Source: a virus
Reading direction: 5' to 3' (one strand)
Length of the DNA: 64,000 nucleotides
IMG/VR virus record: IMGVR_UViG_3300024299_000001
Span: 64,001-128,000 of that record
In this document: one piece after another, positions 45,152 to 48,394 of the stretch
How the letters are laid out: each line of letters begins with the position of its first letter
Position numbering within the stretch: position 1 is the stretch's first letter
The notes under the pieces: model-generated
Told to the model about the DNA's origin: nothing
The model's input: the letters and a program-made list of their open reading frames with translations, nothing else
Database searches by the model: none
Position numbers and translations under genes: made by a program

Positions 45152-46108
45152 ATGCAACATATTCTTTTTGGTTCAGATTCTTCTTTAGTTTCTATTGCTA
45201 TTTTAATTAAAACTACGGCTTTTGCTAAAAGTACAATCCAAAGGGCTTATGTAACCCCATCAACTATTCCTTCTGAAAAATTTATAGCTTTTGATTTAGC
45301 ATATACTTTAAATAATAAATGTCCTGCTAAACTGGCTAAAGAATATCTTGAAGACTTACTGCCTGAAATAAGTATTTTAAATGTAACTACTCTTTTGGTT
45401 TGTGATCCAATTTACTTTAAAATATTAACCAAATTAAAAAAGGTTAATGACTGTTATGGGCATATTTATGAATGTGCCATTAAAGATTATGAATACTTAG
45501 ATATTATTTTAGCACCCAACTACCAATCAGTACTTTATAATCCTGCAATACAAAGTAAGATCGATACAGCCAATGAAACCCTCATTGATCATGTGGGCAA
45601 CACTTATGTAGTTCCAGGAACTAATGTTATTCATTCTGCCTATTATCCAGAAACTATATCCGCTATTAAAGCAGCTTTACATGATCTGCAGCAATATCCA
45701 GCATTAACATGTGATATTGAAGCAACTAGTTTAAAATTCTATAAAGCAAAGATAGAAACAATAGCTTTTGCTTGGGATAAACATAATTTTATTGCTTTTT
45801 GTGTAGGAAGAGACAACACCACAAATACACAAATTCAAATACAAACCATGTTACGAAAGTTTTTTACGTTGTACAAAGGTACAACAATATGGCATAATGC
45901 AAATTATGATCATAAAGTTTTAATTTATAATCTATGGATGCAACATTTAGCTGATTATAAAAATATGATTAAAGGAATTAAAATTATGACTAAAAACTTT
46001 GAAGACACGAAACTAATAGCTTATCTTGCAACTAATAATGCTATTCAAAACAAGTTAAGTTTAAAAGAACTGTCTTCCCCTTTTATGGGTAATTATGGAG
46101 TACTTTAA
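45152..46108 (+). CDS. family A DNA polymerase, part A (3'-5' exonuclease Exo I and Exo II region)
   Basis: Exo I LTCDIEATSL and Exo II WHNANYDHKVL. The ORF stops at 46108, before Exo III. Confidence 0.8.
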   Translation: MQHILFGSDSSLVSIAILIKTTAFAKSTIQRAYVTPSTIPSEKFIAFDLAYTLNNKCPAKLAKEYLEDLLPEISILNVTTLLVCDPIYFKILTKLKKVNDCYGHIYECAIKDYEYLDIILAPNYQSVLYNPAIQSKIDTANETLIDHVGNTYVVPGTNVIHSAYYPETISAIKAALHDLQQYPALTCDIEATSLKFYKAKIETIAFAWDKHNFIAFCVGRDNTTNTQIQIQTMLRKFFTLYKGTTIWHNANYDHKVLIYNLWMQHLADYKNMIKGIKIMTKNFEDTKLIAYLATNNAIQNKLSLKELSSPFMGNYGVL

Positions 46109-46109
46109 A

Positions 46110-46760
46110 ATGAAACAAAAATTAGTAGGTAAACGTTTTGGTAAATTATTAGTCATTAATGAAGAACCAGAAAGAGCAAACAATTCAAGGTATTTTAAAG
46201 TACTTTGTGATTGTGGTAATACCCCTGTAATGCATATGTCTAGTATAAAACGTAAAATAGCAGGTATTAAAAGTTGTGGTTGTGCTAATAAACATAATGG
46301 TACTGGGACCCGTTTACACAGTATTTGGCAAAATATGAAACAACGCTGTTTAAATCCAAAAAATACTAATTATAGAAATTATGGAAAAAAAGGTATCACA
46401 ATCTGTACTCTTTGGTTAGAAGATTTTACTTTGTTTCGTACTTGGGCTTTAAATAGTGGATACCACGCTAATTTAACTATAGACAGAAAAAACGGAAAAT
46501 TAGGATATACACCATTAAATTGTAGATGGGTAGACCAAATAACACAAACTCGTAATTCTTATAAACGAAGGAAAACCAATTCAAAATATATTGGAGTATG
46601 TTTTTACCAACGTACTAAATTATGGGCAGCATATATTAATGTTGACAAAAAACGTATCCATTTAGGTTTTCACTCTTCCGAATATAAAGCGGCTATAGCT
46701 AGAGATTCTTATATTGTAGCACATAATTTACAAAATTTTATTATGAATGAGGTGTTATAG
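46110..46760 (+). CDS. homing-endonuclease-like protein with AP2 domain, inserted in the DNA polymerase gene
   Basis: ATG at 46110 after GGAG (track start 46095). Motifs: GKLLVI...CDCGN...SCGC, RLHSIWQNMKQRCLNPKNTNYRNYGKKGI, LTIDRKNGKLGYTPLNCRW, and AP2-like YIGVCFYQRTKLWAAYI. This architecture is common in free-standing phage HEG-like genes. Confidence 0.65.
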   Translation: MKQKLVGKRFGKLLVINEEPERANNSRYFKVLCDCGNTPVMHMSSIKRKIAGIKSCGCANKHNGTGTRLHSIWQNMKQRCLNPKNTNYRNYGKKGITICTLWLEDFTLFRTWALNSGYHANLTIDRKNGKLGYTPLNCRWVDQITQTRNSYKRRKTNSKYIGVCFYQRTKLWAAYINVDKKRIHLGFHSSEYKAAIARDSYIVAHNLQNFIMNEVL

Positions 46761-48394
46761 TGGGTGTTACTGCAAAAATAGCAACTCCAGATTTATTAAA
46801 GTATAATGGTCAAGATTGCTTGGCTACCTGGTACGTTAATGAGACCCATAAACCAACAATGATAGCTGATCAACAAGAGCAACTATATGAAGAATTATTT
46901 AAACCAACAGTAATTACTCTCTTGCAGACTGAGCTGTGTGGCATGCCAATTAATCCAAAAAAAGTACAATTTGCTAAACTTCATTTAGTTTCTATTGAAC
47001 ATACCTGTTTAGATTATTTTAATAATTCTAAATTAATCCAAGATTTTCATTTTACTCAATTAATAGCATTAGCAGAAAAGATGACTGCTAAAGCTAAAAA
47101 GAAAATTTACGATATCACTGATCCAATCATTGCCCGGGAAGTATTTAATCCTGGCAGTGATACCCAACTCAGGGCTTTAATCTTTGATTATATGGGTTAC
47201 GATATAATCAATCTTACAAAAGGTAAACAAGCCTCTACCAGCAAGGGTACCATTGAGAAGTTAATTAATCATGCCAAGACTCCTGAACATAAAGAAATAT
47301 TTGAACATCTTATTAAATTAGCTGATGTCAGTATCTTACTTTCAACTTTTATTCCTTCAATGGAGAAAGCACAAAGATTACCTGATGGTAGTTACCGGTT
47401 ATATGGTAACTTTAATCTTGGCGGGACCCAAAGCTTAAGGCTATCCAGTTCAGATCCTAATCTGCAAAATATTCCATCACATTCAATATTTGCTCAAATC
47501 ATTAAAGAATGCTTCGAACCGATTATTGGTTGGTTATTCTTTGGTTCAGACTTTGATGCACTGGAAGATAAAACAAATGCTCTAATAACTAAAGATCCAA
47601 ATAAATTAAAAATCTATACTGATGGTTTTTGTGGCCACTGTCTTCGGGCATTCTCTTACTTTGGCGATAAAATGAATGGTATTATTGAAACAGTTACTTC
47701 TATTAATTCCATTAAAAAACTCTATCCTGATCTAAGACAAGATTCTAAAGCCCCTACCTTTGCACTTACCTACGGGGGAAGTTTTCATACTTTAATGAAG
47801 AATTGTGGATTTACTAAACCTCAAGCCAAACAAATTGAAAAGATGTACCACCAGCTTTACACCGTAGCAGATAAATGGGTTGATAATCTTGTAGAGCAAG
47901 CCAAAAAAATAGGATACATTCCCTTAGCATTTGGTGGCCGGATACGTACCCCATTGCTCGCTAAAACCGTAGGGAAGGTCAAAGTACCCTTTGCAGCTCA
48001 AAAGGAGGCTAGGAGTGCAGGAAATGCTGCTACACAGTCATATTGTTTCCTGACCCAACGTGCAATGAATGAATTCAGAGAAAGAGTATGGGCTTCACCA
48101 TATATTTACACTATATTACCTGCTGCTACAATTCATGATGCAGCTTATTACATGGGACAAGATAATGCTGATCTGATCAAATGGGCCAATGATAATCTCA
48201 TTGATTGTATGGCTTGGCAGCAATTACCTGAACTAATGCATCCTACGATTAAAATAAGCTCTGGATTAGAGATTTACTGGCCTTCCTGGGGTAATAAGGT
48301 CAAGATACCCAATAACGCTTCTAAACAGCAAATTAAAGCCCTTTGTTTGAAAGCTGAACAAGAAGAAAAGGCTAAACAATTAATTACACCATAA
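46760..48394 (+). CDS. family A DNA polymerase, part B (Exo III + polymerase domain)
   Basis: GTG at 46760 with GAGG 8 nt upstream. Exo III LLKYNGQDCLATWY, motif A FFGSDFDALEDK, motif B RQDSKAPTFALTYGGS and motif C ATIHDAAYY. Confidence 0.8.
   Translation: MGVTAKIATPDLLKYNGQDCLATWYVNETHKPTMIADQQEQLYEELFKPTVITLLQTELCGMPINPKKVQFAKLHLVSIEHTCLDYFNNSKLIQDFHFTQLIALAEKMTAKAKKKIYDITDPIIAREVFNPGSDTQLRALIFDYMGYDIINLTKGKQASTSKGTIEKLINHAKTPEHKEIFEHLIKLADVSILLSTFIPSMEKAQRLPDGSYRLYGNFNLGGTQSLRLSSSDPNLQNIPSHSIFAQIIKECFEPIIGWLFFGSDFDALEDKTNALITKDPNKLKIYTDGFCGHCLRAFSYFGDKMNGIIETVTSINSIKKLYPDLRQDSKAPTFALTYGGSFHTLMKNCGFTKPQAKQIEKMYHQLYTVADKWVDNLVEQAKKIGYIPLAFGGRIRTPLLAKTVGKVKVPFAAQKEARSAGNAATQSYCFLTQRAMNEFRERVWASPYIYTILPAATIHDAAYYMGQDNADLIKWANDNLIDCMAWQQLPELMHPTIKISSGLEIYWPSWGNKVKIPNNASKQQIKALCLKAEQEEKAKQLITP

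Follow-up and report, generated by a model that had tools for sequence, protein, structure and literature searches.

Introduction

Phage genes that are split by endonuclease genes, including the DNA polymerase genes of N4-like phages, are already known. In phage Aeh1, the nrdA-a / mobE / nrdA-b arrangement has been described as "genes in pieces" (Edgell et al., 2010, review, PMC2988022; Crona et al., 2010, PMC3045599). The split NrdA of Aeh1 reassembles and is active (PMC2988022; PMC3045599), its activity requires insertion-derived tails (PMC3045599), and TAATG-type overlaps have been discussed as signs of translational coupling (PMC2988022). According to the work of Petrov et al. (2006), as far as it is summarized in the review PMC2988022, PolB of Aeromonas phages 25 and 44RR is split as gp43A/gp43B, the pieces co-purify and are active, and the gp43 spacer is an endonuclease gene in phage 25 and other sequence in 44RR. 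In addition, N4-like polymerases are split by HNH genes, at other sites than the one described here, in Vibrio JA-1/VCO139 (PMC3670811), Escherichia Pollock and U1G, Klebsiella Pylas and Shigella B2.

Here we analyzed a stretch of 64,000 nt from an uncultured N4-like phage (IMG/VR record IMGVR_UViG_3300024299_000001, positions 64,001 to 128,000; hereafter the window), in which a DNA polymerase gene at 45152-48394 is interrupted by an endonuclease-type open reading frame (ORF). Sequence comparison indicates that this locus is probably a gene in pieces: an endonuclease-type gene lies within an N4 gp39-type polymerase gene, and the two polymerase chains would be translated separately and reassemble non-covalently. 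No concept is changed by the locus; specific to it are the position of the break in the proofreading domain, the lack of tails, and the comparative evidence of a break that outlives the endonuclease gene.

The locus resembles each of the described systems in part. As in Aeh1 nrdA, a free-standing endonuclease-type gene (HNH-type in Aeh1, HNH-like here) splits a critical region of an essential replication-related gene, the pieces appear to be translated separately (reassembly being shown in Aeh1 and deduced here), and overlapping stops and starts point to translational coupling. The two cases differ in host gene, endonuclease family and phage family, and here the junction regions displayed no unusual RNA structure, with no hairpin sequestering the ribosome-binding site (RBS) at either junction. 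With gp43 of phages 25 and 44RR, as presented in the same review, the locus shares a DNA polymerase in two cistrons and a split that is kept whatever the spacer contains; those phages, however, are T4-like myoviruses with a family B polymerase and a seg (GIY-YIG) endonuclease, whereas here a family A polymerase of an N4-like phage is split within the exonuclease domain. The N4-like splits listed above share the polymerase family and the kind of interruption, and the cultured coliphage U1G also carries the same endonuclease family in its polymerase, with overlapping stops and starts, at a different site. Those breaks lie approximately 550-650 residues into the protein, in the polymerase domain, whereas the break in the window is at residue 318, in the exonuclease domain between Exo II and Exo III.

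Structure of the Interrupted Polymerase Gene

The initial annotation, which had been made from the sequence alone, described a polymerase interrupted between Exo II and Exo III by an ORF with no non-coding space around it. The ORF list, the sequence, Pfam and PHROG confirmed this description at all coordinates, and the features of the locus are as follows.

45152..46108, + strand: polymerase part A, 318 amino acids (aa), 36.2 kDa, with Exo I and Exo II (from the ORF list, Pfam, PHROG and alignment)
46097..46100, + strand: GGAG, Shine-Dalgarno-like run for the inserted ORF, inside the 3'-terminal codons of part A, spaced 9 nt from ATG 46110
46110..46760, + strand: HNH-like/AP2 endonuclease-type ORF, free-standing, 216 aa, 25.1 kDa
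46749..46752, + strand: GAGG, Shine-Dalgarno for part B, inside the 3'-terminal codons of the inserted ORF, spaced 7 nt from GTG 46760
46760..48394, + strand: polymerase part B, 544 aa, 61.5 kDa, with the Exo III helix, then thumb, palm and fingers

The sequence of part A ends in GNYGVL followed by the stop TAA at 46106-46108, and a single nucleotide separates this stop from the ATG of the inserted ORF, whose own stop (TAG, 46758-46760) has one base in common with the GTG start of part B (46760-46762). The separate GAGG RBS that the initial annotation had assigned to part B is likewise present. The longest form of the inserted ORF begins at ATG 46095, but ATG 46110 is the better start, because GGAG lies 9 nt upstream of it, the protein collection lists precisely this 216-aa product for 24 contigs, and the junctions of relatives show that their homologous inserted ORFs begin at or just after the stop of part A. 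Six relatives likewise have an equivalent of this run, GGAG or GGGG, in the codons for Y-G of part A.

Part A matches the Pfam family DNA_pol_A_exo1 over profile positions 5-125 of 173 only, as well as phrog_17, and comprises the N-terminal domain and the first ∼70% of the 3'-5' exonuclease domain; part B matches the Pfam family DNA_pol_A with 124 bits. Exo I (DIE, residues 188-190 of part A, window 45713-45721) and Exo II (NANYD, residues 249-253 of part A, window 45896-45910) are on the first piece, and Exo III (YNGQD, residues 15-19 of part B, window 46802-46816) is on the second. The closest cultured relatives are polymerases of Schitoviridae (N4-like), at 45-48% identity, and a megablast search of 44900-48600 against GenBank phages gave no match, so the gene has no close cultured relative. 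Its neighbors constitute an N4-like replication module, namely a Dda-like helicase, a RuvC-like resolvase, an exonuclease and a primase. The gene is an N4 gp39-type family A DNA polymerase with 3'-5' exonuclease, placed in N4-like replication synteny.

Parts A and B, in that order, are colinear with the unsplit 863-aa polymerase of Salmonella phage FSL SP-058, and together they are one residue shorter than it at the junction. Alignment with unsplit polymerases of 860-872 aa gave a junction difference of 0-1 residues, so that the two parts do abut with no loss of conserved sequence, as had been proposed. In a collection of 5.8 billion proteins, the nearest relatives of part B were 61-65% identical, unsplit and 860-872 aa long; a near-identical allele free of the endonuclease was sought there, and the nearest part B relative was just 65% identical, and unsplit. 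Unsplit relatives read GNYAEDTTDT(T/S)KIP across the junction, where the window has GNYGVL-stop and MGVTAKIA. Part A thus ends three residues past GNY and part B opens at the homologous position, with no extra tail residues; from this comparison, the insertion recoded approximately three residues on each side and added no tails.

Conservation of the Break in Relatives

The part A search yielded approximately 20 clusters of 315-339 aa, 43-61% identical to part A, all of which end in G[ND]YG[VIL][LFM]-stop. The break falls at the same residue in at least 11 diverged uncultured N4-like contigs (43-61% identical), and it was found in three distinct contigs among 80 sampled IMG/VR N4-like loci, many others of which are broken elsewhere in the gene. 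We read the junctions in seven loci, namely the window, L010, L094, L095, L096, L007 and L009 (also L022 and G001, a 76-kb CheckV-complete contig). Part B opens with its own start codon at the homologous residue in all seven, and GAGG or GGAG stands just upstream of that start in five of them (the window, L010, L094, L095 and L007); in L096 part B is preceded by AAGG only, and in L009 by no Shine-Dalgarno-like run. The locus in the window presents a host gene colinear with unsplit polymerases, an inserted ORF with no ribozyme or intein match around it, and start signals belonging to each piece, as is found in genes in pieces.

The content of the insert varies while the break is kept. An intact homologous insert ORF of 216-231 aa is present in eight loci (the window, L010, L094, L095, L096, L098, L099 and L100). 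In L007, the insert is a 141-aa degenerate remnant that has lost the N-terminal ribbon and in which IDR has become LCR. In L101, it is 242 nt long and carries a 70-aa Cys-rich ORF whose stop overlaps the ATG of part B, and in L009 it consists of two unrelated, non-endonuclease ORFs (67 aa, and 168 aa matching phrog_5434, to which no function is assigned). Across the split loci the inserts measure 242-714 nt and are filled with ORFs. Together, these loci provide good comparative evidence that the break persists after the endonuclease gene decays or is replaced.

The same junctions bear on a reading in which the interruption would be repaired at the protein or translation level, by an intein, by stop-codon readthrough or by ribosomal bypassing. 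Such repair could make use of the reading frame that parts A and B share in the window, where both coordinates are 2 mod 3; the initial annotation had pointed out this shared frame, and it is real. Nevertheless, the A-to-B frame offset in the seven split loci is 0, 1, 1, 2, 0, 2 and 0, and because it varies among homologous loci, the shared frame in the window is a matter of chance. The inserted ORF is in another frame, and the A/B frame holds approximately 40 stops through the insert, on account of which the intein, readthrough and bypass readings were rejected. In addition, no intein match was obtained, and the gap of 651 nt is far above known bypassing; ribosomal bypassing in T4 gene 60 spans 50 nt. 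We give repair of this kind hardly any probability.

Evidence Against a Group I Intron

As the other option, the initial annotation had raised an unusually compact intron, spliced from U46105 to G46762. Under this reading a group I (or other self-splicing) intron would have its ribozyme core overlapping the endonuclease ORF, and a single mRNA would give a polymerase of ∼98 kDa. Several points speak for it. The helicase gene of this phage does contain a group I intron (window 41515-42494) that encloses an HNH ORF, a U precedes the stop of part A and a G ends the GTG in the window, and introns have been guessed for the endonuclease-split genes of Vibrio N4-like phages (PMC3670811). Furthermore, the Rfam group I model is insensitive: scans of the whole window found nothing and missed the helicase intron (41509-41673 and 42271-42444) at E ≤ 1. 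Since a local scan of 1.4 kb did see that intron, whole-window Rfam negatives on introns in this genome are untrustworthy, and we gave them no weight.

We therefore relied on local scans, with the helicase intron as the control. The scan of 41300-42700 returned Intron_gpI with 43.3 bits (E 2e-9) and a weaker 3' piece, whereas the same kind of scan over 45800-47100 returned no Intron_gpI match at E ≤ 10, and local scans of L098-L101 returned nothing either. The 657-nt insert folds no better than its shuffles (z -0.53), compared with z -2.49 for the 5' core of the helicase intron. The two interruptions are alike in belonging to the same genome and the same replication module and in carrying an endonuclease ORF; the helicase intron, however, has a non-coding core of approximately 285 nt plus 70 nt, its Intron_gpI match, its structured core and an ORF of phrog_59, none of which is found in the polymerase insert. 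As set out above, the insert leaves 1 nt before its ORF and overlaps part B by 1 nt after it, with no further non-coding space. In the seven loci, T, A, T, T, G, T and T precede the stop of part A, which shows no conservation of the U at the supposed 5' splice site, and the terminal G is fixed in any case by the start codon. Moreover, inserts that share no homology and are packed with ORFs of their own occur at one and the same break, and each part B carries a start codon, in most cases preceded by a Shine-Dalgarno-like run. A split gene is strongly favored over an intron because a ribozyme cannot be kept across non-homologous inserts and because start codons and Shine-Dalgarno-like runs head the part B genes. 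The compact intron did not stand up to these comparisons, and we regard it as very unlikely.

Proposed Translation and Reassembly of the Two Chains

For the gene in pieces, the following course of expression may be proposed. The three ORFs most likely lie on one transcript and would each be translated separately; the Shine-Dalgarno run of each downstream start is buried in the preceding ORF, and the stops and starts abut or overlap, a layout commonly seen where translation is coupled. The resulting polypeptides of 36 kDa and 62 kDa would then associate non-covalently. In the 3'-5' exonuclease domain, the insertion point falls in a predicted loop that immediately precedes the Exo III helix, so that this N-terminal helix of part B may dock into the incomplete exonuclease fold of part A. 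Docking would rebuild a composite proofreading site and tether part A to the polymerase body, with no tail peptides.

Three lines of evidence are consistent with this course. First, D188, E190, N249 and D253 of Exo I and Exo II are invariant in an alignment of 19 split part A sequences, and YNxxD of Exo III is kept in every part B examined; conservation of Exo I and Exo II on one chain and of Exo III on the other would be anticipated solely where a composite site forms. Second, the AlphaFold model of L028, the closest full-length unsplit relative fetched from IMG/VR (predicted local distance difference test, pLDDT, 89.8; predicted template modeling score, pTM, 0.85), places the break at approximately residues 321-323, in a 10-residue coil (316-325) that is locally the least confident stretch. 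A 28-residue helix with Exo III (331-358) comes right after this coil. Part B would accordingly begin with a helix of the exonuclease fold of part A, and such a helix would offer a natural docking interface that needs no added peptides. Third, the complete 76-kb relative G001 has its family A polymerase in fragmented form alone. Reassembly of two polypeptides, of the sort known from T4-like phages with endonuclease-split genes, had been suggested in the initial annotation, and the comparative evidence lends this suggestion good support.

Some observations weigh against the gene in pieces as proposed. Reassembly is deduced from motif conservation and from a model of an unsplit homologue, not of the complex. 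The pieces of Aeh1 NrdA have essential tails, whereas here parts A and B add up to the unsplit length with approximately three recoded residues on each side; insertion-derived tails, however, are a feature of the Aeh1 NrdA case and not of the whole gene-in-pieces class. Part B starts with GTG in the window and with ATG in all six relatives examined. In addition, another complete family A polymerase, 654 aa long, is encoded in this viral record outside the window (G000:C1:30640-32604; L103:694-2658), with its own exonuclease motifs and matches to phrog_17 (1.3e-97) and PF00476 (84.7 bits), so the split enzyme is not necessarily the sole replicase here.

This second polymerase and the lack of insertion-derived interaction tails on either part would also suit a reading in which the pieces do not reassemble, part B acting alone as an exonuclease-deficient polymerase, part A being separate or decaying, and fidelity or replication being left to the second enzyme. 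Against it, both pieces are intact ORFs, and Exo I and Exo II on part A and Exo III on part B are conserved across lineages that are just 43-61% identical. The Exo III helix is integral to the exonuclease fold in the L028 model. To our knowledge, N4-like phages normally carry one family A polymerase. The complete 76-kb relative G001 was searched for a second copy and has none, the only DNA_pol_A matches in it being those of the fragmented polymerase pieces. We consider it unlikely that the pieces remain apart.

If the two chains reassemble as proposed, the locus would be a natural case of a family A polymerase that tolerates a break within its 3'-5' exonuclease domain without added interaction peptides, with an active site shared by two chains. 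Such a case may be relevant to split-polymerase engineering. It also bears on annotation, as such pieces are often named "DNA polymerase" twice or an intron is assumed, and on the persistence of selfish endonuclease genes in essential genes.

The Inserted ORF

The initial annotation labeled the insert an AP2-type homing endonuclease gene and placed it in a family unlike that of the intron endonucleases. This label held in its main points: the predicted protein has an AP2 fold, and the insert belongs to phrog_374 whereas the ORF of the helicase intron belongs to phrog_59; the nuclease itself is putative. The match to phrog_374, which is labeled "HNH endonuclease", is strong (6.5e-60), and the Pfam AP2 match is weak (17.7 bits against a cut-off of 33.3). 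No HNH family of Pfam was matched at E ≤ 10 and no NCBIfam model was matched; a sequence search of PDB gave no meaningful match, and a fold search returned the AP2 domain only and no HNH. The name "HNH" therefore rests on PHROG labels, given these negative results and the Arg that occupies the position of the catalytic His.

The AlphaFold model of the insert, built from 39 homologues (pLDDT 89), consists of a Cys-rich N-terminal ribbon, a helical region, a beta-beta-alpha unit (123-149) and a C-terminal sheet-plus-helix domain. The beta-beta-alpha unit comprises a strand at 123-126 (TIDR), a strand at 138-141 and a helix at 143-149, and in the family alignment its near-invariant residues are D125, R126, N137 and N149. 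The canonical HNH catalytic His at the end of the first strand was not found in that alignment, an Arg standing there instead. With Foldseek against PDB, the modeled C-terminal domain resembled the AP2 domain of Arabidopsis TEM1 (7et5; root-mean-square deviation 1.7 Å, 57 columns, probability 1.00, 28% identity) and also matched AtERF1 (1gcc), so this domain is predicted to be an AP2 DNA-binding fold of a three-stranded sheet and a helix. According to the model, then, the protein is HNH-like in topology and a putative nuclease. The C-terminal module is interchangeable within the family: some members have AP2 there, and others a helix-rich module of a different kind.

The conserved core of the family consists of a CxC...CGC ribbon, an RC/YGxRG block and TIDR...NCRW...QxxN, and no Pfam or NCBIfam model covers it. 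Relatives of the insert occur in 1,135 records of the phage collection, and in Pectobacterium phage phiA41 one of them sits between two intact genes. The insert gene itself is single-copy in its genome.

Evolutionary Pattern of the Split

In a tree of the part A region, whose sample leaves out full-length proteins through the length filter of the search, the split state was clustered but patchy, with at least five changes across well-supported branches and nine by parsimony. A single ancient origin of the split was rejected, since the tree needs these changes. Taken with the unsplit state of the nearest part B relatives, the patchiness indicates repeated gain or loss of the element, which a homing-type element would be expected to show. 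On the other hand, the pairwise identity of the insert ORF tracks that of parts A and B (43-61%), with the exception of L094/L095, in which the inserts are 72% identical and the polymerase parts 58-59%. Because of this tracking, the association appears to be mostly old and not recently spread.

This last pattern is relevant to a further reading, in which the insert is no longer, or not only, a selfish nuclease. It could have become a domesticated DNA-binding partner, or else the split within the proofreading domain might itself be selected, for example by tuning the exonuclease-to-polymerase ratio via translational coupling. The first of these options derives from the lack of a canonical HNH histidine, with a near-invariant Asp-Arg instead, from an ORF that is intact in at least eight lineages, and from a divergence that tracks the polymerase approximately one to one. 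We hold this reading to be rather improbable.

Composition of the Locus and Other Interruptions in Related Polymerases

The guanine-plus-cytosine (GC) content of part A and the insert is 29-30%, compared with 36% for part B and for the window. A low-GC trough at 45000-46800 (27-31% GC; ∼17% GC at third codon positions) covers part A and the insert; it is gradual and has no step at the junction. This trough could be a co-conversion tract or could reflect a different constraint, and because the change is gradual we draw no conclusion on a co-conversion tract. Scanned for promoters and terminators, 44600-48800 had fewer sites than shuffles, or no more than them.

Several related polymerases have interruptions of other kinds. 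In L009, the polymerase (4001-8199) is in three pieces of 319, 278 and 334 aa, and an ORF of 225 aa from the HNH-like/AP2 family of the window's insert occupies the second break. The polymerase of L099 (L099:1918-6383) is heavily invaded: it has the ORF at the exonuclease site, followed by pieces parted by ORFs with weak matches to Intein_splicing, HNH_3 and NUMOD4. Three part-B-like proteins of ∼600 aa, P0254, P0295 and P0307, start approximately 55 residues further upstream, before a DTK...YLATN block, and their starts indicate a second recurrent break site within the exonuclease domain. Finally, in another relative (L005:2840-3900) a 292-aa ORF breaks the polymerase at the RLSSSNP / NLQNIPS motif and is flanked by approximately 65 nt and by more than 100 nt of non-coding or out-of-register sequence; the interruption in L005 could be a true intron, unlike the insert in the window.

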